Source: a virus
Taxonomy: Duplodnaviria > Caudoviricetes
Virus record (IMG/VR): IMGVR_UViG_3300043811_000165
Location: 1-59,868 of that record
Strand: one strand, 5' to 3'
DNA length: 59,868 nt
A program made the position numbers and the translations under genes. This document shows, piece after piece, positions 958 through 58,874 of the stretch. The first letter of the stretch is position 1. Every line of letters begins with the position of its first letter. The notes under the pieces were generated by a model. The model did no database searches, was not told the DNA's origin, and saw only the letters and a list, made by a program, of their open reading frames with translations.

Positions 958-967
958 TTTTGTGGCC

Positions 968-1402
968 TCATCCGGCTTGTGGCTTCGCTTCCGATTGTTT
1001 CCGTTCGACCAGGAGAAGTTTTAGTTCGACCTGGGACAAGCGCGCATCGACATCGATCATTGCCCGTTTTACTTCGGACGCCACAAATCGCGGAAGCCGG
1101 TCCCGTAACTTCCCGAACCCAGCGCCGTTATGATGAAAGTCGTCTTTGCATTGCTTCGAATGAAACATCTGATTGACCTTGATCTGCTTAAAGATCACCG
1201 GGCAGTTTTTACAGCGTACGGTTTTCAATTCCGGGTTCTTGGGAACTCGTTTGCGCGCGCTGTGACGCTTCGCCGCCGCTTTTGGGGTGCCTGACATAGC
1301 CTCCAGCCTAACACAACCCGTAGCGCTCACGCAAACCAGCGCCACGGCAGTTTTAAAACCAGCACGGGCATTTAGTTTCGGTAAATATTTCCATTTAGCC
1401 AT
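968..1402 (-). CDS. Hypothetical protein with Zn-finger-like motif; C-terminus encoded by a repeat
   Basis: CKNC...HSKQC motif; ends LLLVER..EAKPQAG inside the repeat. Confidence 0.5.
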   Translation of the reverse strand: MAKWKYLPKLNARAGFKTAVALVCVSATGCVRLEAMSGTPKAAAKRHSARKRVPKNPELKTVRCKNCPVIFKQIKVNQMFHSKQCKDDFHHNGAGFGKLRDRLPRFVASEVKRAMIDVDARLSQVELKLLLVERKQSEAKPQAG

Positions 1403-1564
1403 CCGGTTTTGATTTTTTCTTCAAGATCCCGGACGATGGCGGCGTTCTCATCGGCCGTCCGCTTCGGTGTTCCGGCGATCCGCGTCGGCTTCGGGGACTT
1501 CATCCGCAACGTGCTCCACAGTCGGTCTTGTGCTTTTCGAAATTTCAAGTCCTGTTCGGTGCGA

Positions 1565-2581
1565 CTAGATTCTTTCGAGTAAGTCATGAGCGAGTTTCCT
1601 TTCTTCGGCTGTTGATTTGGGATCGGCCAGTGTGTCTTCGGCTAGTTTGCGGCTGCGCGCAATGTCGCGCTCCGCGTGTTGCAACTGGCCGTTAAGAGAT
1701 TTTCTTGCCGCGAGCAATGGGGCTCCACTGAGCATTTTCGGAATACTGGTGAGCAGCAACCCGGCCCAGTTCGTCACACTACCCCGCATTTGAGATTTTT
1801 TCATCCGGCCGAGTTCGATCAGTTCGAGAGTCGTGATCGCCGGTTCGATCTTTTTTGATTTCGCCAATAACTTCCCCGCCGCGTCGTCGTCCAGCCCGAG
1901 CGCTATTCCAAGTTCCCGAACAGACGACGACGGAGATTCCGGGTTGAAAACAGAATTTGAACCTGCCGTAGTGTTCGGTGTTATAGGCGGGGTCAAGGCG
2001 GGGTCTAGGTCAAGGCGGGGTCTAGGTCTCGCCACGGATTGCGTTTTTGTGCGCACGGTTTGGCGATCCGTGCGCACGGTTTGGCGATCCGTGCGCACGG
2101 CATGCGCACGTTTGGAGTTTTCATACTCCAAAATCGCCTTTTCCTTTGAAATCTTATAATCCTCATAAAACTCGCGAAGTGGTTCCCTCTCTCTGGCAAA
2201 AAACCGAGACAATTTTGGGACCTCTAGAATGGTTTCTCCAGGGGCTCCCTGGCGTACAAAAAACTCCCGTCTGCGGGCGATTCTCATGTGAACTCCATCG
2301 TCGGCATGATCCGGCCAGTCGTGAACGATCAGACGATGCTGTTTACTCACGTCTATCCAGCCGCAATCAATCAACGCCGTGATCATTTTTTGTTCGTCGC
2401 CGTGGTAGTCGATGGCGATAGCGATGTCTTCGTCCGACAGTTTGCCGATGTCGCCGCGCGGAGTCTCCCGAGCCGTGACGTGCCAGATAGATTCGAGCAG
2501 TCCTATTGCCTGCCATAGTTCCAGATTCAGCTTGCGGCAGAGCCGCTTCATTTTGGAATGGTGAACCGCTTCGCGCTTCAT
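1565..2581 (-). CDS. Putative phage replication initiator (N-terminal winged-helix type)
   Basis: N-terminus KMKRL..AIGLLESIWH..GDIGKLSDEDIA..LIDCGWID..LIVHDW resembles phage replication proteins; central low-complexity linker carries DNA direct repeats. Confidence 0.6.
   Translation of the reverse strand: MKREAVHHSKMKRLCRKLNLELWQAIGLLESIWHVTARETPRGDIGKLSDEDIAIAIDYHGDEQKMITALIDCGWIDVSKQHRLIVHDWPDHADDGVHMRIARRREFFVRQGAPGETILEVPKLSRFFAREREPLREFYEDYKISKEKAILEYENSKRAHAVRTDRQTVRTDRQTVRTKTQSVARPRPRLDLDPALTPPITPNTTAGSNSVFNPESPSSSVRELGIALGLDDDAAGKLLAKSKKIEPAITTLELIELGRMKKSQMRGSVTNWAGLLLTSIPKMLSGAPLLAARKSLNGQLQHAERDIARSRKLAEDTLADPKSTAEERKLAHDLLERI
1986..2110. repeat. Iteron-like direct repeats inside the replication gene (candidate origin)
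   Basis: GTGCGCACGGTTTGGCGATCC x2.5 (2049-2100), a further TGCGCACG at 2103, and GGTCAAGGCGGGGTCTA x2 plus a partial copy (1986-2028). Confidence 0.75.
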
Positions 2582-2909
2582 CCGTTCCAGCCCTCGTTTG
2601 AAGTCGGAAAGGCGCGCGGTATTTCAGAAGTCATCAACACTCTCCAGCAAGAGTTCGGGACCGATGTGCTGGCACCGGTCCCGTGGAACCTATCTCCACT
2701 TGTCGGGGATCAGCCGACGATTTGAGTATAACGTACTGCGGGAGAGACTGTATCACAGTTTTCGATTGGTTTGGCGCTTTCCTCGGCTCCGCTGAACTTC
2801 CGGGATTTTTGATCGTGCGCGCTCAGAGCAAGAAAGTACCACTCCTGGTCGAACGCGAATCTCGTAGACTTGCAAACCGGACCCCGATGAGGCTAAAATA
2901 TGCGAGCCA

Positions 2910-3512
2910 ATGTCCCTCAAGCCCGACTCGATCATCGATTTATCACACTGGAACATCGTCCAGAACTTCACCGAAGTGGCCAAATCCGGCGTCTCCGCAG
3001 TGATCCACAAAGCAAGCCAGGGAGTGACGATGGACCCGCGTTACATGAGCCGCGAATTTCAAGCGAAAAACAGAGGTCTGCTTTGGGGCGCCTACCACTT
3101 CGGAGTCCAGGGACACGATCCGGTTCAGCAGGCGGATTGGTTTCTCGGAGTCGCAGGCCGATCAAAAGTTCTGGCACTCGACTGGGAATGGAACAACGCG
3201 GACACAATGACGGGCAACCAGGCGGCGGCGTTCGTTGCGCGCGTGCAGCAAAAAACCGGACGCTGGCCCTTGATCTACACTTCGGCGGCGTTCCTTGCTT
3301 CGATTCCGCGGCTGGTCGACCCGGTGCTTTTAAATTGCGAGTTGTGGCTCACCGGTTTTACGCCGTCGCCGGTGATTCCTCAGCAGTGGGCGACGAAGGG
3401 CTATCGGATATGGCAGCACGGATTGGGAAGTGTATCGGGGATTCAGGGACAGGTGGATCTGGATACATTCAATGGGACGGGGGAGGAGTTGGTAGCGTAC
3501 TTTGGCTCGTAA
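2910..3512 (+). CDS. GH25 family lysozyme (endolysin)
   Basis: IDLSHWN, KASQG, GAYHF, LDWE, IYTS, IWQH, VDLDTFNG motifs. Confidence 0.93.
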   Translation: MSLKPDSIIDLSHWNIVQNFTEVAKSGVSAVIHKASQGVTMDPRYMSREFQAKNRGLLWGAYHFGVQGHDPVQQADWFLGVAGRSKVLALDWEWNNADTMTGNQAAAFVARVQQKTGRWPLIYTSAAFLASIPRLVDPVLLNCELWLTGFTPSPVIPQQWATKGYRIWQHGLGSVSGIQGQVDLDTFNGTGEELVAYFGS

Positions 3513-4071
3513 AAATACCCGGACCGTTTTCAGTCGATCCAGGTTAGAGTTTCACTTCGGAGGAATTTTCTTTGCGGGGATAGTGTAGACGATGTTTTGG
3601 CCTCCGTCAAGTCCGGTCTTGCGCTTCAGTACTGGATCGCCCGACCAGGAGGGGGTTTGGGAGCCGGGTACACGAAGCGGATCGGAAACCAGTCGCACGT
3701 CGTGTTGGTCGAGATCTCTTCGCCGATGAACTTCCGGCAGAATCCAAAATGCCCACAGGTCGAACAAGTTTGGCCCTCAGGTAGTTTCTTCGTCGAATAA
3801 AATAACTATCAGAGCCGTTGCGTTCTCTGCGGGTACCCGAAAGATGCCCACTTGTCGGATGGTCGTTGTTCAAGGGATGTAGTGTTGGTCGCTGTGACTC
3901 ACAGCGCCGCTCCAATTTCGATGTGCCGCCAGTATTGATCGATCCAAAACCGACCGCGCCACGACACGCCCCATGCGGATCTATTCCTGAACTCGATGTG
4001 TGCGAACCAATCGATGTGCGCCGCTTCGAATCTTTCCAAACGATTGATCGACTGATAGGCCGGTTCGTAAG

Positions 4072-5001: not shown

Positions 5002-5211
5002 TCATCGCTGGCACCTCGGACACAATACCACCGGATCGTCGTCTTCGTCGAATGCGGTTTTGAACTGCCAGCCGGATCTGGTTGCCGCAGTGTCTGCTTC
5101 CCGGATGTTTTTGAAACTGGATATTTCTTTTGAATCAGCGTGACGCGGTTCGCCGTCTGAGCCCAAGAAGCGCCGGCATCTGTCGCAGCCTATGGAGATG
5201 GAGCCTTTCAT
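5002..5211 (-). CDS. Small Zn-ribbon-like phage protein
   Basis: CDRC...GW...LCPRC; ATG right after a repeat RBS. Confidence 0.65.
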   Translation of the reverse strand: MKGSISIGCDRCRRFLGSDGEPRHADSKEISSFKNIREADTAATRSGWQFKTAFDEDDDPVVLCPRCQR

Positions 5212-6633
5212 GATTTGGCCTCAGTCTGCTCCGCACTTCGCGTCGGATTCGGATCGTTCGACCAGGAGAGAGGCCCGAGACAATTCGGACCAGAAATGGT
5301 CACAGTTGGCCACGTAGACCGGGGAAAAGTTTCGCTCATGTTCTGCAATTTGTTTATCGAGCGCATGGACCGGATCTTCATCCGGCAGCCCGCAACGCAG
5401 GCACCTGTGATCCTCGCCCTCCCGGACGTCAGCAACATGCGGCATCGTCATCCAAAACCGCCATTGCCGGTTGTCCGCCAAAACCTCTCCTGGTCGAACA
5501 GTAGAGACTGCGGGCGACGACTGTGTTCGAAATGTTTCCTTGATCGTTTCCGCAATCTGATCGATCATTCTCGATCTGAATCCTCCCGGGCATGGACGGT
5601 CTGGATTGGGGAACCCGCCATATATTTTGTGCGCTGCTGCGTAGGCGGCGACTTCCAACTGATAGGGGGTCATGGTTTGGCCTCGCCCGGTTGTGCGGCT
5701 TGTTCGGGTGTGGACTTCTCGACAGCGCCCATGTGTCTGCTGGCCATGGTGACATCGAAACTTGCGCTTACACACTCTCCAGGTCTTAGGACGATGGAAG
5801 GTTTGAGCCCTCGCCGCGCTTCTTCTTCTCTGAGTACCTCCATCATATCGCGCGCTTCGTTCGCCACCGCATATTTGCGCAGGGCGCGTTCGATCTGAGT
5901 CTCACTGAAACCTGTTCCAGCCCATTCTTTTCTGCCCACCAACAAAAGCCACCTTTCGAACCCCAGTGGATTTTTCCCATACCCGCCGTAGATGCTTCCG
6001 TTGTGTGATCCGACCGCGCAAGCCAGCAACCAGGGGCTGAGTTTCGAAGTGATTTGTTCTGCGTTCTGGGGTACTCCTCCTGATCGAACGGAATCGTACC
6101 GACGCACAAGCCACATGCCGAATGAGGCTAAAATATTGCGCATTTAAAACCTCCTCTGTTCCGGCAACTCATCAAAATAAGTTCTGATGTCGTAATCGCA
6201 AAGCGGTGTTCCATCTTCCTGGACCACCCGCAAGCGATCCCCCACCACAAGCGCACGCCCGGCGAGAGAACGGCGCATCCACTGGTCGAAACTGGTCCAA
6301 TCCTCCGTGACGATCATCGCCAGAGTGAAAAAGAGCAGGCAGGTTGGGAAGATCTGCAAAAATACGTCAAACATGGGGTTCCTCGATTGCCGAAAGAATC
6401 CGGCGCCGGATGCGAAGGAACCGCGCGTGCCGGTCTTCGTAGCCGTAGATCATCTCGATAAATCCGATGCAGAAGGGAAACGCGATCAGAAAGTCGATTA
6501 ACATGCTGCCTCCAAAACCATCGTACGCCTGACCGGTGTTTTGGTGAAATGGAGCGGAGGTACTGTTTTCGGGCGGGATTCGCCTTAGGGCTGTTTCTAA
6601 GGTGTCTGGTACTCACAGATCTTCAGTACTGTA

Positions 6634-6662: not shown

Positions 6663-6736
6663 ACGGATTCGCTATATTGGCCTCATCGCAGTCGGGTTCT
6701 TCAACCGAAGCATTGAGCGTTCGACCAGGAGAAGTT

Positions 6737-7336
6737 TTGGAACAAAAACGAAGAGGCGACTGGATTCAAACCTTCACTGGGCTTTCGATGTTCCCCCTTG
6801 ATCCGCGACTCGAAGAGATCACGATTGAGGATATTGCCCATGCTCTTTCGAACATTTGCCGGTTCACCGGGCACGTTCGTACTTTCTATTCAGTCGCTGA
6901 ACATTCGGTGCGCGTGAGCTGGGCTTGTGAAATTGAAAACGCGATGTGGGGTCTTCTCCACGATGCGTCAGAGGCTTATCTGTCGGACATCAGTCGGCCG
7001 ATGAAACGAACTTCTGATTTCGGCAAACTCTACATGGAAGCCGAACAGGTGTTGATGTCGACGATCTGTGCGAAGTTCGGCCTGCCTCCAGAATGCCCCG
7101 CCGACGTGAAGCTGAGCGATAACCGGATGTTGGTTACTGAAAAACGAGATCTCTTAGGACCATGTAACCGGCAGTGGGAAAAACAGGATGTCGCGGTCAA
7201 GCCGTATGAAGGACGGATCATTCCGCAGAGCCCGGAGACGGCAGAGCGTCTTTTCTTAGAACGATTTCGTCAGATCGGTACAAAACCTCTCGTGGTCGAA
7301 CGCTCTAAACCCGAAGTGAAAACTGAATCCGAATGA
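6737..7336 (+). CDS. HD-domain phosphohydrolase (YfbR-like 5'-deoxynucleotidase type), carried between inverted repeats
   Basis: DIAHALSNICRFTGH..YSVAEHS..LLHDASEAY; TTG start after the repeat AGGAG; stop inside the closing repeat. Confidence 0.85.
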   Translation: MEQKRRGDWIQTFTGLSMFPLDPRLEEITIEDIAHALSNICRFTGHVRTFYSVAEHSVRVSWACEIENAMWGLLHDASEAYLSDISRPMKRTSDFGKLYMEAEQVLMSTICAKFGLPPECPADVKLSDNRMLVTEKRDLLGPCNRQWEKQDVAVKPYEGRIIPQSPETAERLFLERFRQIGTKPLVVERSKPEVKTESE

Positions 7337-7346
7337 GGCCAAATTA

Positions 7347-7601
7347 ATGAGTGCATCTTTACGCTACAACCCCGAACACACAGCATTTGAAGTAACCGTC
7401 GGAGACAATGTATGGGCGCAGGAGATCGACGCCAACGACGAATCGGTCATGCTCCACCACGACGGCGGCTGCTACGTGGTCACGATGGATGACGCGCAAC
7501 TCGAAGGACTGGACCCGAACGCGGTTTATGAACTGCGGAAAGTCACCACGGTCGTCAAGCCGGATGGAGAATTCGAATACGACAAGTTGGATGCGAACTG
7601 A
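7347..7601 (+). CDS. Hypothetical acidic protein
   Basis: Fills the space between two repeats. Confidence 0.7.
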   Translation: MSASLRYNPEHTAFEVTVGDNVWAQEIDANDESVMLHHDGGCYVVTMDDAQLEGLDPNAVYELRKVTTVVKPDGEFEYDKLDAN

Positions 7602-8004
7602 TATGTTGGCCTCATCGAGCAGCGAGGGACGCGCACCTGAAAGCGTTCGACCAGGAGAGGAAACTGTCGAATGGACGCGGCTTAAAAACGGGTCCTGGTT
7701 GGGATGCTCCGGCTCTCAAATACTTTGTATCGTCGACAAACTCGAGGATTTTCCGGTAGAGGGATGGACCCCTCAATGCTTCCGGGATGTGTTCACCACT
7801 CCCGAAGCCGCGATGGTTGCAGGAGAACTGCTGTTACGATCCATCCGGCATCAACAGGAGGAAACGACCACGCCTCCGATTTCGTGGGTGGATATTTATC
7901 TCCCAATTCTGAAAAGCGTTGTGGCCGCGCTTGAAGACAAGTCGCTCCTGGCCGGGCGCTCCACGTCCAACGAAACCCAAAAGCCGACGGAGGCCAAATC
8001 ATAA

Positions 8005-8154: not shown

Positions 8155-8524
8155 TGCCGCTGGCCTCATCGCAGTCGAGTCTTCGCGTTGGGCATCCTGC
8201 CGTTCGACCAGGAGAGGCCGTAGATCGCCCGCTCACATTCAAACCGGGACATCTCGGGAGGGGCGGAGAATTGTTGCTGCTCGGGCGGCGAGACAAATTG
8301 TGTTCGGAGTGCCACAAACCATTCGTCTCGGCAACAGCGAACCAAAAAACGTGTACTCCGGAATGCTCCGAAGCCCGCGAGAAACGAATGAAAAAAGCGT
8401 CGAGAACCCGCGAACGAGTCAATCGGAATCTGCCCAAACCAAAACGCGGTCGTCCACCAAAGGCGCTCCTGGTCGAACGGAAACCGCCGATGCGCAGCAC
8501 GCTGCCGAATGAGGCCAAAACAAA

Positions 8525-8917
8525 ATGCCGGTAGCGCTCACCCGCCATCTACCGGGCAAAGCCACGATGCGCGACGAATTCGGACAGGTGCGTTTCGAAT
8601 ATGGCATCGTCGCCGAAGTTGGCAAAGATTCTATCTTGATCAAAACCGGCTCGAAGGAAATCGGGCAGGCGGTAGATCATGGATATCTCCGGCTCATCGG
8701 GGAAACGTACATTTACTGGTGTCCCAAATGTCAGACCAACGTATGGGAAGTAGAGCGGCTACGATCGCGGGGTGCTTGCCCGCATTGTAGTCAGGGGCTC
8801 TGGGCGCTACAGGCTGGAGATCGGGTAAGGCTTCATTACCGGATATCCGTAGGAAAGAATGCCGAAGGGCAGATTGTTTCAGGCGGGGGAGCGTGGTGGG
8901 GAGAGAAGGTAGTTTGA
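8525..8917 (+). CDS. Hypothetical protein with Zn ribbon
   Basis: CPKC...CPHC; fills the inter-repeat space. Confidence 0.7.
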   Translation: MPVALTRHLPGKATMRDEFGQVRFEYGIVAEVGKDSILIKTGSKEIGQAVDHGYLRLIGETYIYWCPKCQTNVWEVERLRSRGACPHCSQGLWALQAGDRVRLHYRISVGKNAEGQIVSGGGAWWGEKVV

Positions 8918-8983
8918 TGATTTGGCCTCATCGGGTTTGAGGCTTCGACCGGAGTTTTGATCGTTCGACCAGGAGGGGTTTTT

Positions 8984-9184
8984 GTGAAGCGCAAAACAAG
9001 ATTCAATATTATCCGAGCTTTGGAGTTTACGTGCGGCTGGATCGGAGGCCGTTACTTTCATGACGACTGGAGATTTATTCTAGTCCTGATTCCGTTCGCA
9101 ATAGTGTTTGCATATCTGCTCAGAGTCCCAGAACCACTCCTGGTCGAACGCTCCGAAACCGACGCGCAGACCGTTTCCGACTGA
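8984..9184 (+). CDS. Small membrane protein (cassette cargo)
   Basis: GTG after AGGAGG; one TM; ends in a repeat. Confidence 0.55.
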   Translation: MKRKTRFNIIRALEFTCGWIGGRYFHDDWRFILVLIPFAIVFAYLLRVPEPLLVERSETDAQTVSD

Positions 9185-9193
9185 GGCCAAAAC

Positions 9194-9691
9194 ATGGAAC
9201 CCATCACACCCCTAGAACCCCAAAACTTCAGCCTCCCGCCCGGCCAGCGCGGAACCGAAACAATGAACCCCGACTCAGTCGAATTCGTGGATCACAAAAC
9301 CATCGCCGCATTGAACGGAATGCCGCCGGGCGAGACTGCCGAGAAACTGACGTTCCTTGAAAAAGAGTGGGACGACTGGACCGTCGACAATGCGCACGAT
9401 GTTGAAGTATGGCCGATCGAAGCATTCCGCATCCTTCGACTTCAAGTCCGCGAACTGGCCTTGGCCTACTCAACCGAAGTCGCCGGCAAGCGGGCGCTCG
9501 CAATTCAGGCGGACATCGGCACAATGCACATTGAGAACCAGCGACTACAAGCGCAGTTCCGCAGGTTCATGCAGCAACATTTCGAGGAAGATGTTCTGAA
9601 CGGAGAAGGCCGGAATCTGACTATTTTTGAGATGGCGCAGGATATCATGCTTCGAGCAAAGCCGAAGTGGTTTGAGTTTTGGAGGCGATGA
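9194..9691 (+). CDS. Hypothetical protein
   Basis: Fills the inter-repeat space; C-terminal KPKWFEFWRR. Confidence 0.7.
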   Translation: MEPITPLEPQNFSLPPGQRGTETMNPDSVEFVDHKTIAALNGMPPGETAEKLTFLEKEWDDWTVDNAHDVEVWPIEAFRILRLQVRELALAYSTEVAGKRALAIQADIGTMHIENQRLQAQFRRFMQQHFEEDVLNGEGRNLTIFEMAQDIMLRAKPKWFEFWRR

Positions 9692-9755
9692 TGGTTTGGC
9701 CTTTTAGCGCACGGTGGCTTCGGGGTGCAGTCGTGCGTACGACCAGGAGGGGTTT

Positions 9756-9980
9756 ATGAGCACATCCTGGACCAACCTACACGGCTATTGGGCTTTTTCG
9801 GTTTACGGAGTAGAGCGTGGTAGCGTTTCTAGAATCTTTAGGAAGGTCGGCGGTGAGGGCTACATCGCAGAATATGAAGCATTCGTAAAAGGTCAGTTTG
9901 ATTCCCTCCGCGATGCAAAGGTCGCTGTCGAGAAGGCCCATGCGGAACAAGCCGAAACGACGAACGAGGCCAAAACATGA
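9756..9980 (+). CDS. Hypothetical cargo protein
   Basis: ATG after AGGAGG; ends EAKT with ATGA overlap. Confidence 0.65.
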   Translation: MSTSWTNLHGYWAFSVYGVERGSVSRIFRKVGGEGYIAEYEAFVKGQFDSLRDAKVAVEKAHAEQAETTNEAKT

Positions 9981-10153
9981 CCTGCCCCGCCTGCATCGTT
10001 CAGCGATTTCACTCCGCTGAAGACTGGAACAATCATCCATTGGCCGGTCACGGCTACACCCGCGAACAAGGCTGGTCGCACCCCGATCTGAAGGCCGCTG
10101 TCGAGAAGGCCAAAGCCGAACAAGTGGCAGTGTCGAACGAGGCCAAATCATGA
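9977..10153 (+). CDS. Small hypothetical protein (58 aa, not in ORF track)
   Basis: MTCPAC...EAKS; ATGA overlaps at both ends. Confidence 0.6.
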   Translation: MTCPACIVQRFHSAEDWNNHPLAGHGYTREQGWSHPDLKAAVEKAKAEQVAVSNEAKS

Positions 10154-46262: not shown

Positions 46263-46264
46263 TG

Positions 46265-49424: not shown

Positions 49425-49434
49425 AAAATTCCTT

Positions 49435-51493: not shown

Positions 51494-51653
51494 CACTTCT
51501 TTTTTAAAATTGCAATTGCCGCGATTCCGCCGGCCAAAATCCAAAACCATGTTGCATCGGGACAAACTGTTTGACCTTTCGAGGTTCCACAAGCGACCTG
51601 AGGAGAAAACACTGCCTCCCAGGAGTAGCAGCCGGAGAGATCACCCATTTGTT

Positions 51654-51791
51654 TTGGCCTCCTTCGGCAGAGTGGCTTCGACCGATTTTAGAGCGCCCGA
51701 CCAGGAGAGATCTTTTCTACCCGCGAAGTGCGAAACCCACTCCTGGTCGAACGGTAGAGCGTACGCGGACATCGATGCACTTTGAGGCCAA
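51654..51791. mobile_element. Empty ~140 bp repeat-pair unit 3
   Basis: Same architecture and spacer. Confidence 0.8.
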
Positions 51792-51795
51792 CCCA

Positions 51796-52374
51796 TTACC
51801 AACCTCCATGAATCATGCTTGCCGGAATTCCGGGATAATGCCCGAGACCACTGAGCCCGGTTACTCCAGCCGCGGTGTTGAGTAGTTCCACAAACTGAGC
51901 CGGGGCCATCAGCACGTAGCTTCGATTCGCGCCGGTAGCTCCAGCGGCCGATAGCATGGCTTCAACCTGATCGCCGGTCAATGGCGTAACGTTCGGCAGT
52001 TTAGCGTAGTAATACGCCCACTGGTCAATATTCAGTTGCGGCGGATTATTTGGAGTCGCAGTCTGTTGTGCGAGTTGAATTGCCATCGCCAATCCACCAC
52101 TGCTGACATCGGCCTGTCCGCCGTATTCAGTAGTCGCAGGCGTGGCTGAGGTTTGCACCGGAGGATTCGAAGTAAGAGGGGCCGTGCAAATCCCTCCTAC
52201 CATCGTCGACGGCGCAACACAGGGCTGAATAGTGCCTGTCGAAACTGGAGCTGGTGTCGGAGCAGCAGCCGCGAACGAAAATAGATTCGCAAACCAGCCC
52301 TGCTCATACCCGTACCACGCAAGCGCACCGGCTCCGGCGAGTATGATCAGCGAGGTGTAGTCTTGCTGCGCCAT
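51796..52374 (-). CDS. N-terminal TM protein, paralog of 52725..53351
   Basis: IDQWAYYY vs LDNWAYYW; NR....A.QFV. Confidence 0.7.
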   Translation of the reverse strand: MAQQDYTSLIILAGAGALAWYGYEQGWFANLFSFAAAAPTPAPVSTGTIQPCVAPSTMVGGICTAPLTSNPPVQTSATPATTEYGGQADVSSGGLAMAIQLAQQTATPNNPPQLNIDQWAYYYAKLPNVTPLTGDQVEAMLSAAGATGANRSYVLMAPAQFVELLNTAAGVTGLSGLGHYPGIPASMIHGGW

Positions 52375-52737
52375 TTATTGCCCCCCCCCTACTGGGTTCA
52401 ACATCAGCGGGCTGCAATCGGCATTCTTTGGACAAGGAAACTTCGGGTCCAATATTACACCAGCGCCGCCAGTGGTAGGAAGCGGCGATAATACTCCGGG
52501 CGGTGGCACTCCGTTGATCGGAGGACCATAAAGCGGAGGTAACACTGCGGGGGGCTGAGCCGGGGTCAAGACGGAGATCGGAACCATATTACCGCTTCCG
52601 ATGGGCGCGACCGTTGGAACAACAGCAGGCGCGGTTGCGGCGGTTCCAAACCAGTTGTTCTGGTAGCCGTAGTACAGCACGGCGCCGATTCCCGCAATCC
52701 ACAAAATTGGTGTCCAGTCTTTCATCAGTTCACCCAA
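52375..52737 (-). CDS. N-terminal TM Pro-rich protein
   Basis: YGYQNNWF anchor similar to neighbours. Confidence 0.65.
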   Translation of the reverse strand: MGELMKDWTPILWIAGIGAVLYYGYQNNWFGTAATAPAVVPTVAPIGSGNMVPISVLTPAQPPAVLPPLYGPPINGVPPPGVLSPLPTTGGAGVILDPKFPCPKNADCSPLMLNPVGGGQ

Positions 52738-53351
52738 TCGCTATACTGCGAGCTGTAATCGTAAAAGGACTGAAGCCCGGCCGTTCCGGATGCGGGAGTT
52801 CCGCTCGGAGTTGTCTGGTTGATCCAGGCCACGAACTGCTCCGCGCTCACCGCCGCGTTGCGATTGCCTCCGTTCAGCGAAACAATCTGATCCATCTGCG
52901 AAGGTGCGATGGAATTCGGAACACCGAAACCAGCAGGCGCGCCTTCAAACGGCGTGCTGTTCTGCCAGTAGTAAGCCCAATTGTCGAGGTCCTGCGAATC
53001 GGATCCACCGGCCGCGGCTTGCATCAGTGAAATCGCTTGCTGATAGTTGGGAGCAAGACCTGCCCCTGGAGACGTAACTGGAGGAAGCGCGGCGTTTGAA
53101 TTCGAGGCGAGCCATTGCGCGCATGTCGCCGTCGAACTGGCACCCGTGGCCGGATCCACGTAGATTGCAGTGCCGGTTGGGTTCGCCTGGCAGTAAGCCA
53201 GAAGCCCGGTTGATGTGTTGAACGTGTTGGTCGAAGAGGAACCACCGAACCATTGCGCCCAGAGGCCGGAGTTCTGGAGCCACTGATAGACGAAATAGGC
53301 TGCGGCGGCCATGGCACCGTACTTGATTAATTGTTTGGTGTTTTCGTCCAT
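52725..53351 (-). CDS. N-terminal TM protein
   Basis: ATG right after a repeat RBS. Confidence 0.7.
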   Translation of the reverse strand: MDENTKQLIKYGAMAAAAYFVYQWLQNSGLWAQWFGGSSSTNTFNTSTGLLAYCQANPTGTAIYVDPATGASSTATCAQWLASNSNAALPPVTSPGAGLAPNYQQAISLMQAAAGGSDSQDLDNWAYYWQNSTPFEGAPAGFGVPNSIAPSQMDQIVSLNGGNRNAAVSAEQFVAWINQTTPSGTPASGTAGLQSFYDYSSQYSDWVN

Positions 53352-53354
53352 TAT

Positions 53355-53494
53355 TTGGCCTCCGTCGGCGGGGTAGCTTCGAGCGATTTGAGAGCGCCCG
53401 ACCAGGAGATGGGTTTTCTACCCTCGGAGAACCGCACCTTCTCCTGGTCGAACGGGAGAGCGAGCGCGTGAAAACGAATTTGCGATGAGGCCAA
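53355..53494. mobile_element. Empty ~140 bp repeat-pair unit 4
   Basis: Same architecture and spacer. Confidence 0.8.
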
Positions 53495-53499
53495 ATTAT

Positions 53500-54030
53500 T
53501 CATCGTTTCCTCGGAAGTACAACGAGTGCAAACCCCGCTAAAATTCCAGCAGCAATCAGAGGATTATCATTCAGCCACTGGTTGATCTGGCACCAGCATG
53601 AATCTCCCAAAACGGAAACCTGCACTGGCGCATTCGATTGTGTGATGTTCGGCAGCGGTTGCACGATGTTTACGGGCGTCAGAGTAACCGGCGGATTGGA
53701 TGTGGGAGGCGGCGCTGGAGTCGGAGTGATCGGCGTAGGAGCCAGAATATTGCAACCCGGAATACTCGCCTTGTAGGGTGCACACACCGGCGAAGTGCAA
53801 GGCTGCGCACCGCCGAATCCTTCCTGTCCCCAATATCCGCACCAGAAGATCGCCGCAGCATTACCCGTATCCACTCCGCACTGGAAAGGAGCGCACTGAG
53901 CCGCGGTCGCCGGAGTGTTCGCGGGATCGGGAATCGGCGTCCCGTCATACAAAAAGACCGGCCCGTAATTTGAAAACGCGCTCGCGTCGTTGCCCCAGTC
54001 GAAAGCCTGCCCGAGTCCCATCATGCTCAT
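53500..54030 (-). CDS. Putative virion membrane protein
   Basis: GLGQ N-terminus; C-terminal TM + RKR. Confidence 0.7.
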   Translation of the reverse strand: MSMMGLGQAFDWGNDASAFSNYGPVFLYDGTPIPDPANTPATAAQCAPFQCGVDTGNAAAIFWCGYWGQEGFGGAQPCTSPVCAPYKASIPGCNILAPTPITPTPAPPPTSNPPVTLTPVNIVQPLPNITQSNAPVQVSVLGDSCWCQINQWLNDNPLIAAGILAGFALVVLPRKR

Positions 54031-54752
54031 CTGCGGCCTCCGATCAAGCCGGGAAGAATCATCAGCGCGGCAATCGCGCCAACCGCAACGGCCCAGTTTG
54101 GCAGGCCGGAGATCAAATCCGAATTTGTGAGGAACGACAAATCGATTCCGCTGGTTGAACTGGTGGACGATGTCGAACCCGTGGAACTTCCCGCGTCAGA
54201 ACTACCGGCCGGGCCTGGAGGCGCAGTATTTCCGGCTGGAGGAGCGACGGTTTGAAGTTGTTTCTGCGTCGGTTGAACGGTAGGAACTGGAGGCGCAACG
54301 TAAGGCTTATCGCCGCTGGTTTCAGGAACTGCGCCGCCATATTTCGCGTTCAACATCTGGGCGAGTTGAGCGGTCGTGTATGTCGACATCGGCTGCCCGC
54401 CGGTCGTCACGTCGCTGATCGAGGGTGACGGACAATTGATCGTGACTCCCATTGCGTCGACGAACGTCAAACCGGGATTCGATTGGCAGTAGACTGCGTC
54501 CTGTCCGATGTTGATCGGAACTGCGACCAGCGCTGCCAGCGTTTGCCCTTCGAAGGAACTTGCGGGAATCGAGGCGATGTCTGCCGCGACTTCCGTATTC
54601 TGCTGTTGAATGAAGGCGGGATTGTTCAGAATTGAACAGGGGTCTTGAAGCGCTGGTGTTCCCGCTGGTGCGCAGCAGACTTGGAGTCCCGAGTCCCAGG
54701 AGCCTCCATTGGGACAGGTCTGGCCGAAACCTCGAAGCGACATTAAGCCCAT
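54027..54752 (-). CDS. Putative virion membrane protein
   Basis: GFGQ N-terminus; C-terminal TM + GGRR. Confidence 0.7.
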   Translation of the reverse strand: MGLMSLRGFGQTCPNGGSWDSGLQVCCAPAGTPALQDPCSILNNPAFIQQQNTEVAADIASIPASSFEGQTLAALVAVPINIGQDAVYCQSNPGLTFVDAMGVTINCPSPSISDVTTGGQPMSTYTTAQLAQMLNAKYGGAVPETSGDKPYVAPPVPTVQPTQKQLQTVAPPAGNTAPPGPAGSSDAGSSTGSTSSTSSTSGIDLSFLTNSDLISGLPNWAVAVGAIAALMILPGLIGGRR

Positions 54753-54755
54753 GAT

Positions 54756-54894
54756 TTGGCCTCCGTCGGCATATGGGCTTCGATCAGCAGACAGCGCCCG
54801 GCCAGGAGATGGGTTTGCTCCGCGCGAAGACGGGCACCTACTCCTGGTCGAACGGTAGAGCGGGCGCGCACATCCTCGACTACGATGAGGCTAA
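54756..54894. mobile_element. Empty ~140 bp repeat-pair unit 5
   Basis: Very similar to unit 1 at 30319. Confidence 0.8.
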
Positions 54895-55644
54895 TCAAAG
54901 GAGCACCACCAACGCGAGTAGCGCCGCGCCGATCAAAAGTTCCGTCAAATCCGGTGTGGACGTCGATAAAGTTGGGCTTGCCGTTGTCGCCGCCGATCCA
55001 CCCGGAGCCGTCGCAGACGTTGGGTCCGGTTGAACAAAAGGATCGTTCGCGATCGGATCACGCATTCCGACGAACCAGTTCCAACATACCGATCCCGATC
55101 CGGCCGCACCCCACGGAGTGTAGGTTCCATCGGCGTTCCATCCCCCCTGAGAAACCTTCCATGTGCATGCGCCTTGTTGCCGGTCCGAGATACAACGTTG
55201 ACCAGCCGCGCCGAGCTGCGCGTTGCCGCACGCCGCTTGAAGTGCTGCCCACGTGGTGTCAAACGTGTTGAGCGCCGCTGTTTGCATCGATACGTAGCGA
55301 ATCGACGAAGATGTGTAGGCCGTGACATTCTGCACGAGAATCGCATCCGCCTGGTTTGCGATCTGGGTTGCTTCGATGCACGTTTGGCCGCAACCTTTGA
55401 ACAAATTGGCGATAGCAATTCCGACTCCCACCAGTGCCGCGATCGCCGCGCCCACGACCGGCAGAGATAAACCCAAAATCGTCATTGTGGAACCGAGCGC
55501 TCCGAGAATCGAAGTGGTGGTCGTGATTCCCGTTGCAGCGATCGACGCCGCGGTGCTCACGCTCGTTGGAACAACCTGCCCCATTCCCCACGTCACGTAG
55601 GGATTGCGAGGAACGATGTGGTAGCTGTCGCGGATTGCGAGCAC
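54895..55644 (-). CDS. Putative virion membrane protein (hydrophobic N-terminal helices, Cys-rich ectodomain, C-terminal TM)
   Basis: Sequence pattern. Confidence 0.7.
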   Translation of the reverse strand: MLAIRDSYHIVPRNPYVTWGMGQVVPTSVSTAASIAATGITTTTSILGALGSTMTILGLSLPVVGAAIAALVGVGIAIANLFKGCGQTCIEATQIANQADAILVQNVTAYTSSSIRYVSMQTAALNTFDTTWAALQAACGNAQLGAAGQRCISDRQQGACTWKVSQGGWNADGTYTPWGAAGSGSVCWNWFVGMRDPIANDPFVQPDPTSATAPGGSAATTASPTLSTSTPDLTELLIGAALLALVVLL

Positions 55645-56334
55645 TTATCGTTTCCCTCCGATGAGGTTTGGCAAAATAATAATCGCCGCGATTGCCCCGA
55701 TAATCAAGGGCACATAGGGTCCGATGGAGGCAAGTCCAGCCGTCAGACTCGCGCTCGCGTTCACGGCCGTCGACGTGGTCAGTTGGCCCGTCGCCGGGTT
55801 GTAAATCAGATTCGTTCCCGCAACCTGGTATGGTCCGCCCGCCGCAGTGCGGATCAGGGAAACCGCAGAATTGCCCGTGGCCGCGATCAGTTGCGCCGTC
55901 TGTGCGGGTGTGAGCCCGGCCGCCTGCGGTGTGAGCGTCACGCTTCCACCGGTCGACACGGTGTATCCGCAGTTTGACATTTGTTGCGCGGTCATTGAAC
56001 TCAGGGGCACTGAATCACAGGAAACGTCCGGTACCGTGATGGGCGTCGTGCCGCCGCCGGTGGGCTCGGTGTAGGTGGTCGTTATTTCCGTGTCGTCTCC
56101 GCTGTCGTCCTGACCCAGTCCCATGAAGCCGTGGAAGCGCGGCATCAGCCGGGGTCGACCACAATCTGCGCCGGGCGGGCAGCCCAGACCTGGAGCGGAA
56201 TATCCCTCTCCCAGAATTCCCGCGTGATCCGGCCAGTTCAAGTCGAAGAATACGGAGATGTCGTTCGGAGTGTAGGGATCTCCTGTAAACCCCGGAGGGT
56301 AGGGCATGGAGGAGGGGACTGTTAAAATGCTCAT
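55645..56334 (-). CDS. Putative virion membrane protein
   Basis: GLGQ motif; C-terminal TM + GGKR. Confidence 0.7.
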   Translation of the reverse strand: MSILTVPSSMPYPPGFTGDPYTPNDISVFFDLNWPDHAGILGEGYSAPGLGCPPGADCGRPRLMPRFHGFMGLGQDDSGDDTEITTTYTEPTGGGTTPITVPDVSCDSVPLSSMTAQQMSNCGYTVSTGGSVTLTPQAAGLTPAQTAQLIAATGNSAVSLIRTAAGGPYQVAGTNLIYNPATGQLTTSTAVNASASLTAGLASIGPYVPLIIGAIAAIIILPNLIGGKR

Positions 56335-56337
56335 GAT

Positions 56338-56477
56338 TTGGCCTCCGTCGGCAGAGTGGCTCCGTGGAATTTGAGAGCGCCCGACCAGGAGAAGCCTTTT
56401 CTACGCGCGAAGAAAAAACTGTCTCCTGGTCGAACGTGGCAGCGGACGCGGGAACCTGGAAACTTCGATGAGGCCAA
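56338..56477. mobile_element. Empty ~140 bp repeat-pair unit 6
   Basis: Same architecture and spacer. Confidence 0.8.
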
Positions 56478-56479
56478 AA

Positions 56480-57160
56480 TCAAATGACCCTCCTATTCAA
56501 CCAGCGGATCAACCCATAAACCCCAGCGGCAATCGCCACCGGAGTCAAAGCAAGGGTCATCTTCTCAATCGGCGTCTCATACACCGGCCATTCCCGTATT
56601 CGGGTGTGCGGGCATTCCCATCCCGGATATTCGCCATGTGAAAAATCAAGCGGAATTCGCCGGCCGTCCGGACCTTCGGGATACGCGGCAACATAAATGT
56701 GCGAATACTCCCGCGGCCGGTCCTGATCCGCGGCCACCGTCACGAGCGCGCAAGGAATTCCCAAGGAGGTCAACAGGCACGCCCCATACATCGTGAACCC
56801 GTCGCAGTCCTCCACTCCCACCCCCCGGAGCGCAATCAGCATCGACTGATCGACCGGTCGGATGAAAACTTCAACGATGTCGTTTTTTCGCGGGTCCGTC
56901 GTGTCCAGGTCCTTCGCGATATCGACGTCCTGTTTAAACTTCATCGACGGCTTGATGAGTTTCCAGACCCCTGATATCGCATCGCCGTCGCGCATCGCCC
57001 GCGCCGCATCCGCCCGGATCGGTTCGGACATTGCGTCTTTACGAATGAAGCAGATTGCTTTGGCCACCGCCTGGCGAACCTGGGCGTCCGGATCGTCGGA
57101 CATGCGGTCAAAGTGGTAGGCCACTTTCACACCGAAATCGGGATGGTACGCCGTGTTCAT
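56480..57160 (-). CDS. Transglutaminase-like cysteine protease-fold protein with C-terminal TM
   Basis: EDCDG (Cys), SHIY (His), PLD (Asp) triad order; first gene of the structural operon. Confidence 0.75.
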   Translation of the reverse strand: MNTAYHPDFGVKVAYHFDRMSDDPDAQVRQAVAKAICFIRKDAMSEPIRADAARAMRDGDAISGVWKLIKPSMKFKQDVDIAKDLDTTDPRKNDIVEVFIRPVDQSMLIALRGVGVEDCDGFTMYGACLLTSLGIPCALVTVAADQDRPREYSHIYVAAYPEGPDGRRIPLDFSHGEYPGWECPHTRIREWPVYETPIEKMTLALTPVAIAAGVYGLIRWLNRRVI

Positions 57161-57262
57161 TAGTACTGGTACTTGCGTTGGGTACTATATTGCACTAGAA
57201 TTTTGGAACGTGTCAAGCGAACATAGATATAGATATATATATCAGCCGACGTCGGGGGAACC

Positions 57263-58810
57263 GTGGCAAAAACCTATCTGAGCATCCCGGCAAAGTCGAA
57301 ATGCTCCCTTCCGTTGCCCGATCAGACGTCATTTAAGGACAATGATCGACGCAAAGACGCGATCAAATTCTTCGAGTACTGGCAAAACATGCCCGAAGAT
57401 TTGAAAGCGATCACGAAAGTACGCGTTTACCGGGTGAAACCGCCTGTTGATCTCAAAAAGATCGGCCTGCGGGTGAAATCTCTGGAAATCTGGCAGGGTG
57501 CGATTCCTTTCGTGCCTGAAGATTACGAGAAGCAGTTTTATCATAAGTTCGGCGGCGGGGATTACCGGTGCAGCCTAGAGGAGATCGGCTTGGGCGGGGG
57601 AGAAGTCTGCGAAGCTCTCTTTTCCCTGCCTGACTGGGAAACGTATCCGCCCAAAGTGGCGGATGGATCGCTGCTGACCGAAACAAATGCTGGGCAGGAA
57701 TATATTCAGTGGCGGGCGCGCCGCGGCGATCCGGTAGGCGGAATAAAGCCAGAATCCGAAACCGCCGAAGGAGAGGATTTTATGGAAGTCGGAAAGTCTA
57801 CAAGTCCGGTTGCCGCAATGGTCGACGGGTTCACGAACCTGGCGACGACGCTGGTCAGTGACGCCAAAGCCGAGGCACGGGACGCAAGAATTGAACTTAA
57901 AGAAGCCGCCGCCGCACGAACGGCCGCAGTTCCCACCACCGACACCGTGACCCATGCCGCGGCCGAGGGAATCAAACTGATGGGCGACGTAACGCGCGAG
58001 GTGATGAAGAACTCGAATGCACCGGACCCCGTCGAGATGTTCAAGAGTTTTGCCGCGCTGATGCCGCCGCCGCCCGATCCTTCTCCCATGTTCAACACCA
58101 TCCTGACTGTAGTGCAGGAATCGAATAAGACCATGCTCCAAATGGTGATGAACCAGAATTCAGAGTTGAAAAGCGAAATCCTTACTCTGCGGAACTCGAA
58201 TACTGCGGTTGCCGTCCAGTCGAAATCAGCCGCTGATCAATTGCGCGAAATCCGCGACAACGCCGAAATGTTGGGCTACACGCGCAACGGAAACGGAGCA
58301 TCGGCAACACCTGCGAAGTCCACATTCGAGGAGTGGGGTCCGATCATCCAGATGGGCCTCCAGATTTTCTCGCCTCTCCTGAATGCCCTCACGATGAAAC
58401 TTGCCGGCAACGGAGGTATGCCGGGACAGGCGCCGCAACCAGGCGCAGCAGCTCCAGCGCCCAATCCTCAGCCCGCGCCGCCGCCCGACAATCCACTGTT
58501 GAGATTCTTAAAAGGATTCGAGCCGACGTTCATGTCGCACTTGCAGACGATCGATTGCAACGGGTTTACTCTCGCATCGCAGGTTCTGTCCGGAGGAACC
58601 GGGGGAATGGAAACGATTCCTGGTCGGGCCAATTACAACTGGATCAAAACGAATCTCGGCTTCCGGCCAGATCGGACGTGCGGGCTTGATGCGCTGATCC
58701 GAACGTATGAACCGATGTGGAACATCATTGAGAAGGATCTGCCAAAATATCAAATGTTTCTTTCTCAATTTTTGAATTATGATGATCAGGTGGGGACGCA
58801 GCCTTCTTGA
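57263..58810 (+). CDS. Large hypothetical protein, divergent from the structural operon
   Basis: 515 aa ORF with coiled-coil and Pro-rich segments; ends just before a repeat. Confidence 0.8.
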   Translation: MAKTYLSIPAKSKCSLPLPDQTSFKDNDRRKDAIKFFEYWQNMPEDLKAITKVRVYRVKPPVDLKKIGLRVKSLEIWQGAIPFVPEDYEKQFYHKFGGGDYRCSLEEIGLGGGEVCEALFSLPDWETYPPKVADGSLLTETNAGQEYIQWRARRGDPVGGIKPESETAEGEDFMEVGKSTSPVAAMVDGFTNLATTLVSDAKAEARDARIELKEAAAARTAAVPTTDTVTHAAAEGIKLMGDVTREVMKNSNAPDPVEMFKSFAALMPPPPDPSPMFNTILTVVQESNKTMLQMVMNQNSELKSEILTLRNSNTAVAVQSKSAADQLREIRDNAEMLGYTRNGNGASATPAKSTFEEWGPIIQMGLQIFSPLLNALTMKLAGNGGMPGQAPQPGAAAPAPNPQPAPPPDNPLLRFLKGFEPTFMSHLQTIDCNGFTLASQVLSGGTGGMETIPGRANYNWIKTNLGFRPDRTCGLDALIRTYEPMWNIIEKDLPKYQMFLSQFLNYDDQVGTQPS

Positions 58811-58874
58811 TTTTGGCCTCATCGCAGTTGAGTCTTCGACCGAAGTTTTGAGCGTTCGACCAGGAGGGGGTTTT

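Follow-up and report, generated by a model that had tools for sequence, protein, structure and literature searches.

The Correia or NEMIS elements of Neisseria are bacterial MITEs (miniature inverted-repeat transposable elements), short non-autonomous units with long inverted repeats that are present in many intergenic copies. Integrons are built around the tyrosine recombinase IntI and its attI site, with a single imperfect palindrome (attC) per cassette and the cassettes in one direct array, while integron mobilization units and the plant Pack-MITE and Pack-MULE elements are known as rare single events in cellular genomes. In mycobacteriophages, stoperators and start-associated sequences are 13-17 bp long, keep a single orientation relative to transcription and are not known to be linked with insertions or deletions (indels). 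The promoter early stem-loop (PeSL) cassettes of T4-type phages are described in two reports as promoter-plus-terminator modules clustered in hyperplastic regions that form mini-circles via homologous recombination of direct copies (PMC2839356, PMC4122927). Virus genomes seldom carry transposable elements. A MITE survey finds such elements in 0.01% of viral sequences, stresses that MITEs are scarce in viruses and lists 99 "vMITEs" in phages of Acidobacteriae UBA7540 without further description (PMC11602168). Here we describe a 54-55-bp three-box repeat that marks nearly every operon junction of the virus contig IMGVR_UViG_3300043811_000165 (Duplodnaviria; Caudoviricetes) and bounds its accessory genes. 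The window analysed (W) is the whole contig of 59,868 bp, with 55% G+C. With modest confidence, and from sequence comparison, we favour the reading that the copies are the arms of a lineage-specific, MITE-like family of inverted-repeat insertions adapted to translational coupling.

Using a profile that was first built from the W copies and then rebuilt on all related genomes, we counted 71 copies in W, namely 62 profile matches, all spanning at least 50 model positions, and nine degenerate copies; at roughly 50-68 bp each, this one repeat makes up an estimated 7% of the window. The 14-nt inner box CGTTCGACCAGGAG was found 57 times with up to two mismatches (0.67 expected; none of 100 shuffles reached 57) and the outer box TTGGCCTC 53 times as an exact match (1.95 expected). 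Alignments and the per-column information profile display three boxes with variable filler between them, nearly unconserved except for the middle CTTCG box, so that the boxes are kept perfectly while the filler drifts. The span from TTGGCCTC to CCAGGAG could be read in 180 of 217 copies from six genomes; it was 54 nt in 95, 55 nt in 50, 53 nt in 17 and of other length in 18. Two subfamilies differ in a covarying pair, the base after GGCCTC and the inner box: type 1 has A with CGTTCG, and type 2 has C with CGCCCG and reads GGAGG, not TGAGG, in reverse. Mutual information among the copies revealed this subfamily signature only (A..TT against C..CC) and no base pairs, and single arms gave no self-fold signal against shuffles (mean z +0.18 forward, -0.41 reverse). 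The nine degenerate copies, type 3, read CTGTCGAGA..N28-36..GAGGCCAA; they keep the outer box and the spacing, and CTGTCGAGA replaces the inner box.

An exact-pattern scan of viral contigs yielded five related contigs: G1 (63,145 bp, 73 copies), G2 (58,096 bp with direct terminal repeats, 47 copies), G3 (41,192 bp with direct terminal repeats, 17 copies, no alternation of orientation, 8/16), the fragment G4 (21,970 bp, 10 copies) and G5 (12,183 bp, 11 copies). A sixth related contig came from a looser pattern scan (L113 and L129, 5 and 6 copies in two loci), which otherwise returned loci lacking profile matches. Element density in the six is about 0.4-1.2 per kb, and the five contigs of the exact-pattern scan are largely syntenic with W, at 65-85% identity where alignable.

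The copies are placed at gene boundaries, face alternate ways and end in translation signals. With genes called from between-genome conservation and a codon model, which is imperfect, only 8 of 62 copy midpoints fell deeper than 45 nt within a confidently called gene, compared with 69% of the genome so called (P = 8e-20), and several of the eight are mis-called gene starts. Adjacent copies have opposite orientations in 58 of 70 instances when degenerate copies are included, and in 42 of 61 for profile matches alone (shuffle mean 31.0, P = 0.003). In what we call F use, a copy follows the upstream stop codon, typically as TGATGnT-TTGGCCTC, and its inner AGGAG lies 6-9 nt before a GTG, ATG or TTG, positioned for the cargo (AGGAG-N6-9-GTG/ATG). 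In R use the copy is read backwards and its outer end GAGGCCAAA stands 2-3 nt ahead of an ATG, where GAGG-CCAAA-N2-3-ATG forms the ribosome-binding site of the downstream core gene. A Shine-Dalgarno sequence is therefore found at the end of each arm in both directions. Over four genomes the two uses are balanced (79 F, 77 R), and the subfamilies are polarised: type-2 arms are 36 R and 2 F, type-1 arms 65 F and 33 R (Fisher P = 2e-11). All nine type-3 arms sit just upstream of a start codon, and type-1 reverse arms hold a TGA in CGATGAGGCC just ahead of the next start. Furthermore, 42 of 79 F arms have an orphan ATG 0-2 nt upstream of TTGGCCTC, where 4% is expected (P = 2e-37). The Shine-Dalgarno sequences at both ends and the transcription-polarised subfamily are signs of selection for translation, so that a regulatory role exists beside mobility.

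The preliminary description of this contig had estimated about 70 copies of a 54-55-bp tripartite element, located almost only at gene boundaries, mostly alternating in orientation, with no internal palindrome of the attC kind and not arranged as a CRISPR array. All of these points hold in our counts, and the copies do not form a tandem array either; the gaps range from about 20 nt to several kb around genes, and the direct repeats, regular spacing and short spacers of a CRISPR array are absent from the W repeats. It had also proposed a profile scan of related viral contigs, and the six relatives carry the same element.

Two arms form a unit in which a forward arm (TTGGCCTC, 32-nt filler, CGTTCGACCAGGAG) faces a reverse arm, with the TTGGCCTC boxes outermost. 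As in the terminal inverted repeats of MITEs, the inverted arms bound a short unit and pair with each other in predicted folds. The shortest units are tight pairs, where a type-1 arm stands face to face with a type-2 arm. W holds six: 30316-30379 (+) with 30400-30463 (-), 36540-36606 (+) with 36628-36687 (-), 51649-51714 (+) with 51733-51797 (-), 53349-53416 (+) with 53436-53499 (-), 54750-54816 (+) with 54836-54898 (-), and 56332-56399 (+) with 56416-56480 (-), the type-2 arm being the first named each time and, in the last four, in R use opposite a type-1 arm in F use. Adding 13 from the relatives brings the number of tight pairs to 19, from six genomes. They are homologous over the full unit, including a conserved linker CTTCG.GGGTAGAAAA, and 138-143 bp long from box to box (18 copies measured, duplicate loci included). 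Across their full length, the non-orthologous pairs at 30316 and 54750 share 78% identity, about the level of the orthologous pairs at W 56332 and G4 11286 (77%). The predicted folds of these doublets are long hairpins (z -0.6 to -5.1) of about equal strength on either strand, with z of -2.8, -5.1, -2.5 and -0.6 for the transcribed strand and -3.0, -2.7, -2.1 and -1.6 for the other. G.U pairing of the CGCCCG arm on the transcribed strand only is not supported by these energies. A structured RNA was likewise rejected, as no Rfam match at gathering thresholds and no tRNAs were found and single arms folded no better than shuffles.

Other units enclose genes. The preliminary description had named an HD hydrolase, a DUF3310 protein, a YRKKP-family protein, a Mom-like protein and a capsid paralogue as cargo of facing pairs. 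The DUF3310 cargo (11147-11371), the small, basic "YRKKP" protein (43936-44127) and the supposed capsid paralogue (23659-24387, 28% identical to a conserved 232-aa protein, gene 44343-45041) were recovered; the HD hydrolase and Mom-like assignments were not, as Pfam gave no match to either at E <= 0.001 among 100 W proteins. The F arms at 43365-43430 (-), 37952-38016 (-) and 11081-11146 (+), all type 1 and at three unrelated junctions, share the filler ATCGCAGTTCGG.CTTCGCGCGGA, and two of the three precede DUF3310-family genes, the one at 11081 ahead of 11147-11371 and the one at 37952 ahead of the DUF3310-like cargo 37810-37950. Homologues of some W cargo genes occupy other slots in the relatives.

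Comparison with the relatives revealed filled and empty forms of the same junction. In G1, a 140-bp tight pair (22658-22797) lies between the orthologues of W genes 54027-54752 and 53500-54030, which in W and G4 join by a bare ATGA overlap and in G2 by TAAaATG. The G1 insert reads ..GGAGGCCGACG ATGA tgct[TTGGCCTC...GAGGCCAA]atc ATGA GCATC.., with the ATGA on both sides. A second locus of G1 (27209-27704) carries a 496-bp arm-cargo-arm unit where W genes 47854-48603 and 47599-47853 abut; it too is flanked by ATGA, and a single open reading frame (ORF) begins at the left ATG and ends at the right TGA. The presence/absence polymorphism of MITEs is thus seen for the first unit against W, G4 and G2 and for the second against W, and the ATGA flanks of these two clean cases have the form of a target-site duplication, which start-codon selection could mimic. 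A search with 152 joined-flank queries found both G1 loci and two more. One is in G4, where no more than aGGGCCTCgaagGAGGCttaa is left at the place that a tight pair occupies in G5 and G2, a site that resembles a remnant of the two outer boxes; the other is L038 against G3, with no visible duplication. G2 is moreover filled with a tight pair at the 105->103 junction. The G4 site (L025, 15-162) consists of aGGGCCTCgaagGAGGCttaaagcATG only, that is, two outer boxes fused to a small palindrome, and could be either a deletion or excision footprint or a native ribosome-binding region from which the arms arose. Filled-minus-empty lengths of 146, 149, 152 and 155 nt were seen, along with an ORF that spans the unit between left ATG and right TGA. 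A relay micro-ORF through tight pairs was rejected as a rule, the frames being open in 12, 9 and 4 of 18 oriented units (18 of 31 tight pairs could be oriented, the 31 including duplicate loci of G1 and G2); five of the 18 end in ATGA, and the left-ATG-to-right-TGA frame holds in some units, such as G1:22653 and the 496-bp unit.

Where the arms are shared, the interiors differ. In the slot 82->80 (genes 44343-45041 to 43429-43878), both arms, in W the type-1 F arm 44147-44215 (-) and the degenerate type-3 R arm 43882-43931 (+), are orthologous in four genomes. Between them lie just 27 nt in G1 and about 65 nt in G5, but a single small basic gene in W and a pair of genes in G2. The W gene (43936-44127, -) encodes the very basic 63-aa protein mentioned above, which is missing from that slot in G1 and G5. 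The length of slot 77->74, before gene 40532-41572, varies from 32 nt (G5) through about 165 nt (G1) and about 500 nt (W) to about 800 nt (G2), and slots 80->77 and 20->23 likewise differ between genomes. Among ORFs of at least 60 aa, those inside pairs had homologues in both other genomes in 3 of 16 cases in W, 2 of 21 in G1 and 3 of 18 in G2, compared with 16 of 24, 26 of 43 and 13 of 25 outside pairs (pooled, 8/55 against 55/92; Fisher P = 5e-8). At the 26 syntenic junctions between consecutive strict core genes of the three genomes, elements were present in all three at 16, in none at 3 and mixed at 7, and junction length differed by more than 150 nt at 23. The only close genome pair available, G3 and L074, is 92.5% identical over 2,625 aligned nt and shows two large differences in 3.1 kb, both abutting an arm: one begins right after the ATG that follows GAGGCCAA, and the other (about 945 against about 469 nt) ends exactly at TCCTGGTCGAACG. 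Breakpoints of indels and replacements between relatives therefore fall at repeats, as they do for PeSLs.

The preliminary description had proposed aligning relatives to see whether cargo is present, absent or exchanged at the repeats, and this comparison came out in its favour. Its reading of the repeats as ends of a mobile or invertible cassette system stands in part: variable slots and whole pairs gained or lost at operon junctions agree with it, cargo also varies at junctions lacking arms, and inversion is not supported, as synteny maps contained no segment inverted between relatives.

The repeat is a feature of this virus lineage rather than of a known host chromosome, as judged from the genomes searched, because 185,579 bacterial and archaeal species genomes gave no convincing match (five single weak matches, with no proteins in common with W). 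Screening of metagenomes yielded 60 loci, 54 of them with profile matches; 23 of the 60 are identical to G1, G2 or G3 (loci of two long contigs to G1 and G2, one locus to G3) and hence not independent, and locus L050 corresponds to G5 by its match positions. No deposited phage genome resembles W, and the element is not described in the literature searched, where the motif strings occur only in unrelated papers. The 232-aa protein had one weak match among 401 Acidobacteriota genomes, a 176-nt unit had none in one Acidobacteriota genome, and a 30-nt string from L074 was absent from the viral contigs.

These comparisons distinguish empty, MITE-like units of 138-143 bp from units with one or a few accessory genes. 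The genomes compared show presence and absence of whole units, differing interiors, enrichment of accessory genes inside pairs and arms with the same filler at unrelated junctions. We propose that a unit would insert at or beside the start codon of a translationally coupled junction and duplicate that codon. The upstream stop codon would stay, the outer end of the right arm would give the downstream gene a new ribosome-binding site and start, and the inner end of the left arm would serve the cargo, with type-1 right arms ending the cargo frame at CGATGAGG just ahead of the next start. Once resident, a pair would act as a slot whose interior may be swapped or lost by double recombination in both arms, or by deletion. 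Arms of this kind would be shaped so that insertion costs the virus little. The enzyme could be the serine recombinase of the virus, a transposase of the host or some other viral protein that went unrecognised. Because the boxes are perfect beside free filler and alike in both orientations, and single arms do not fold, we infer a sequence-specific DNA-binding partner rather than an RNA signal.

Several observations weigh against insertion as the origin of the arms. The clean filled-and-empty comparisons number two only, the third being remnant-like in G4 and the fourth (L038 and G3) lacking a duplication, and the duplicated start codons may partly reflect what selection lets survive. Near-identical copies were not found, the best non-orthologous pair of units being 78% identical, and hence nothing points to recent activity. 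The 100 W proteins and 94 proteins of the relatives that were scanned included no transposase with matching ends, and the serine recombinase was not found in G3, which keeps 17 elements. The contigs of one sequencing run, probably the source, contained no excision, inversion or circle joints, although contigs cannot show rare forms; eleven "joints" in them have short sides (21-73 nt), arise from repeats and paralogues and are no evidence either way. Conservation of the boxes across genomes that are about 70% identical argues for a function in the virus, not mobility alone. Moreover, cargo differs at some junctions lacking any arm, as in G2 and G5 at the 87->86 junction (47854-48603/47599-47853) and in G2, with a directly coupled arm-less gene, at 20->23, and the coupled junctions are thus hot spots of insertion by themselves. 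The arm-less genes at the 87->86 junction (W 47824-47883, G2 27050-27311, G5 1623-2028) differ between G2 and G5; they share their first bases (ATGAGAATGA) and last 21 bases (GGAG.GGCGCGGGACTGCTGATG), and may represent a second kind of junction cassette without 55-bp arms.

The search for an enzyme (Pfam on the 100 W and 94 relatives' proteins, NCBIfam on the 100) revealed a single recognisable DNA-rearranging enzyme in W and thus a candidate catalyst, a small serine recombinase (31852-32502, +; Resolvase domain at residues 4-150, helix-turn-helix at 166-199), which was also found in G1 and G2. Its gene is preceded by a type-2 arm in R use (31787-31854, -), and the type-1 F arm 32443-32511 (+) supplies its stop codon through a CCATGAG variant. 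The same scans found no integrase family (IntI tyrosine recombinase) in the 100 W proteins and no Y1/HUH transposase family in the 100 and 94. The only other rearranging enzyme belongs to an IS1595-family insertion sequence in G1, with unrelated ends. This 1.78-kb insertion (G1 55550-57331; L017:15550-17331) lies near the 3' end of the orthologue of W 22836-23594, encodes a 303-aa transposase (DDE_Tnp_IS1595 and zinc ribbon) and is AT-rich, with an 8-bp duplication GATAATCC and inverted ends of about 16 bp. It is unrelated to the 55-bp repeat and was rejected as its autonomous partner, the ends and the 8-bp duplication being unlike the arms; it may be host-derived and so hint at the host.

A rather unlikely but serious alternative is that the repeat is mainly a regulatory module, a translational or RNA signal or an operator, kept by selection, and that shuffling is a by-product of homologous recombination, as with PeSLs. 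The Shine-Dalgarno sequences at both ends with start codons at a fixed distance, the polarity of type 2, the TGA ahead of the next start in type-1 reverse arms and the perfect boxes in drifting filler all fit such a module, as do the lack of near-identical copies and of a transposase and the variation of cargo at arm-less junctions; PeSLs are a precedent for regulatory repeats at the borders of indels and replacements (PMC2839356, PMC4122927). Homologous exchange between repeats alone, however, cannot put a complete 140-bp pair, ATGA-flanked, into a bare ATGA overlap, and between adjacent arms, which are inverted, recombination would invert and not delete or circularise. An RNA signal leaves the identity of the boxes in both orientations unexplained; single arms give no fold signal, tight pairs fold about equally on both strands, and Rfam has no match. 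Simple scans of 28000-47999 returned 4 sigma-70-like promoters (8.0 expected; a consensus scan, the host not being identified) and 17 intrinsic terminators (21.8 expected), none of them on arm centres, and a promoter or terminator reading was rejected for want of enrichment of either signal. The preliminary description had set a purely regulatory role against its own reading; the translation signals favour a regulatory component, and the gain and loss of whole units at junctions speaks against "purely". Scarcely credible is a relation to repetitive extragenic palindromic (REP) sequences and bacterial interspersed mosaic elements (BIMEs), that is, host-type doublets that bind host factors or stabilise mRNA ends and were spread by a REP-associated tyrosine transposase (RAYT)-type enzyme. 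The pairing of two inverted arm variants around a conserved linker (CTTCG.GGGTAGAAAA) does recall the organisation of BIMEs, and these doublets fold into long hairpins; single arms are not palindromes, the Y1/HUH family is missing from the scans, the element is not convincingly present in the species genomes, and arms that enclose genes and supply ribosome-binding sites are unlike REPs.

Mobility driven by the virus itself would take the form of a cassette platform in which an enzyme, most simply the serine recombinase, inserts units at coupled starts and swaps the interiors of about 30 pairs; we regard this as improbable. If true, it would be an integron-like system for accessory genes that is genome-wide and has translation signals inside its recombination sites. 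The specific version, that the recombinase 31852-32502 acts on the arms with ATGA or a dinucleotide in it as crossover core, we consider quite improbable. The protein is the sole recognisable recombinase among 100, has the classical resolvase/invertase layout, is itself bracketed by arms and is present in the element-rich, strongly alternating W, G1 and G2 (62, 73 and 47 copies) and not found in G3 (17 copies, 8/16), a correlation of three genomes against one; yet nothing links it to the sites, and G3 keeps elements without the gene. Crossover sites of serine recombinases are dyad-symmetric, about 26-34 bp long and bound by a dimer. Two outer ends that abut (GAGGCCAA-N-TTGGCCTC), as at 34927/34985, would give a dyad of that size, and a dyad arises at the arms only where two outer ends meet in this way; in alignment, the three-box arm does not consist of dyads comparable to res subsites. 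One target has a flank (GGAGGCCgcagATGA) that resembles the right end of the element, and the second clean target has no such likeness. Furthermore, resolvases and invertases normally act within one molecule and yield inversions or deletions; the maps of the relatives contained no inverted segment.

The remaining copies in W were located by the profile search, with F or R use taken from the gene-call context and type-3 arms taken from the CTGTCGAGA..GAGGCCAA pattern. Among type-1 copies, those in F use lie at 6073-6137 (-), after a stop codon, and at 7600-7660, 8161-8217, 10494-10555, 17812-17880 and 58810-58874 (all +), as well as 40462-40528 (-); the F arm at 43365 mentioned above is orthologous in G1 and G5. 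The F arm 33336-33403 (+) belongs to cargo 33368-33901, which is found in a different slot in G2, 25251-25316 (+) is the left arm of a 1.3-kb interior, and 18756-18822 (+) pairs with the R arm 19070-19137 (-) around cargo 18822-19136. The ORF 6737-7336 is enclosed by 6674-6739 (+) on the left and the R arm 7282-7347 (-) on the right. At 8916-8983 (+) a left arm follows TGATGA, with a cargo start GTG at about 8985, and its right arm 9129-9196 (-) leads to the ATG of gene 9194-9691. Other type-1 copies in R use are 963-1023 (+), whose TTGGCCTC end abuts the start of a minus-strand gene, 5209-5271 (+), and 8464-8524, 11607-11670, 24383-24450, 26613-26676, 32795-32859 and 33906-33971 (all -). Type-1 copies further stand between divergent gene calls (2835-2901, -), at 13661-13726 (+) and 30852-30919 (+), and back to back at 16068-16133 (-) and 16191-16257 (+), with a 57-nt gap.

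Type-2 copies outside the tight pairs are 3592-3659 (+) and, in R use, 7940-8003 (-), 12935-13000 (-), followed by the SLT-domain gene 12999-13661, 14762-14828 (+), 22773-22834 (-), 28694-28759 (-) and 45848-45911 (+). Variant inner boxes occur in F use at 9690-9756 (+) and 23594-23658 (+), both CGTACG and the latter ahead of the paralogue 23659-24387, and at 12337-12404 (+, CGCTCG). Degenerate type-3 arms, all in R use, lie at 5677-5725 (+, with ATG), 9925-9973, 10098-10146 and 18182-18230 (all -), and 37817-37865, 39977-40025, 41576-41624 and 42653-42701 (all +), and a degenerate F arm (TTGTCCTC) lies at 42074-42128 (-). Partial copies comprise a type-1 box 3 half at 5479-5528 (-) and box 1 halves in R use at 15507-15558 (+) and 48591-48641 (+). 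Another box 1 half, at 34985-35039 (+), stands back to back with a CGTCCG variant (34927-34991, -), their box-1 ends 4 nt apart. A DNA methyltransferase gene (34986-36356; PHROG 363, E = 1.6e-76) begins at this junction and, among the relatives, is found in W only; a 451-aa ORF (35164-36519) overlaps it in another frame.

Apart from the arms, a non-coding stretch of about 130 nt (W 44216-44342, -) directly after the gene of the 232-aa protein and upstream of a forward arm is conserved in W, G1, G2 and G5, from ..GGGAGCGGTAGTTCTGGGAGGAACG.. to ..CCTCCGA..GTTGCTCCG, and could be a structured RNA or the terminator of a gene with high expression. For the 232-aa protein, the AlphaFold model (mean pLDDT 40.6) was too poor and was not used. 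W contains the paralogous genes 36683-37813 and 38015-39973, 52725-53351 and 55645-56334, 41569-41892 and 42646-43191, and the triplet 12999-13661, 45094-45654 and 48966-49448, with amino acid identities of 64-78% and 52-72% (blastp); some lie in arm-bounded slots, which suggests duplication through the same junction system. In addition, W encodes a HerA/FtsK-type ATPase (33950-35077), a GH25 lysozyme (2910-3512) and the SLT-domain protein (12999-13661). Pfam and PHROG scans of W gave no terminase, portal, tail or major-capsid family match, and most large W proteins matched neither database; the lack of tail and capsid families may agree with a tailless virus. A 116-kb metagenome contig (loci L039, L043, L046, L049, L063, L071, L081, L085, L086 and L088) is 100% identical to the 58-kb G2 and covers some G2 positions twice, so that it looks like a head-to-tail dimer of the same genome. 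Such a dimer is expected for a circularly permuted or terminally redundant virus.

If the arms are indeed those of a MITE-like family, this virus would tolerate, and perhaps use, dense insertion elements that restore the stop codon, ribosome-binding site and start they interrupt. Such elements would offer a route to gain or swap "moron" genes free of polar effects and a natural design for portable, translationally coupled gene cassettes. The serine recombinase and the three-box site provide a concrete candidate pair in an uncultured soil virus lineage with no deposited phage relatives.

Judged by the defining features of each, the repeat falls outside the integrons, REP/RAYT systems, PeSLs, stoperators and CRISPR arrays. 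Like stoperators, it is a short conserved motif in dozens of copies at phage gene junctions, but its copies are 55 bp long, occur in both orientations and bound variable gene slots with accessory interiors. From REPs, BIMEs, REP doublets forming hairpins (REPINs) and their RAYTs it differs in the lack of a palindrome and of a RAYT, although doublets with a conserved linker are present. With PeSLs it shares short conserved repeats that bound non-essential phage genes, and indels and replacements that break at them, as far as the reports on PeSLs describe; the W arms, unlike PeSLs, have no promoter or terminator signal, alternate genome-wide, end in translation signals and belong to units inserted at ATGA. 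Integron cassettes resemble the W units in that promoterless accessory genes stand in repeat-delimited slots with empty and filled forms, whereas W has no tyrosine integrase in the scans and no folded single site, and its inverted pairs are spread over about 30 junctions. Besides PeSLs, the closest likeness is to MITEs of the Correia/NEMIS kind, with units of about 140 bp, long inverted repeats, many intergenic copies and presence/absence polymorphism, and perhaps also a short duplicated target and ends that affect the expression of neighbours; inverted ends and polymorphism were found in the W family, a cognate transposase and recent copies were not. Unlike those MITEs, the W element had no matching transposase in the scans and was not convincingly found in the host genomes searched; it resides in a virus at about 1.2 copies per kb, is apparently aimed at start codons of coupled junctions, has ribosome-binding sites both ways in each arm and transcription-polarised subfamilies, and many of its units carry genes. 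The latter feature is shared with MITE-bounded composites such as integron mobilization units and Pack-MITE or Pack-MULE elements, in which inverted-repeat ends lacking a transposase flank cargo genes; in W this arrangement is the organising principle of a viral genome.

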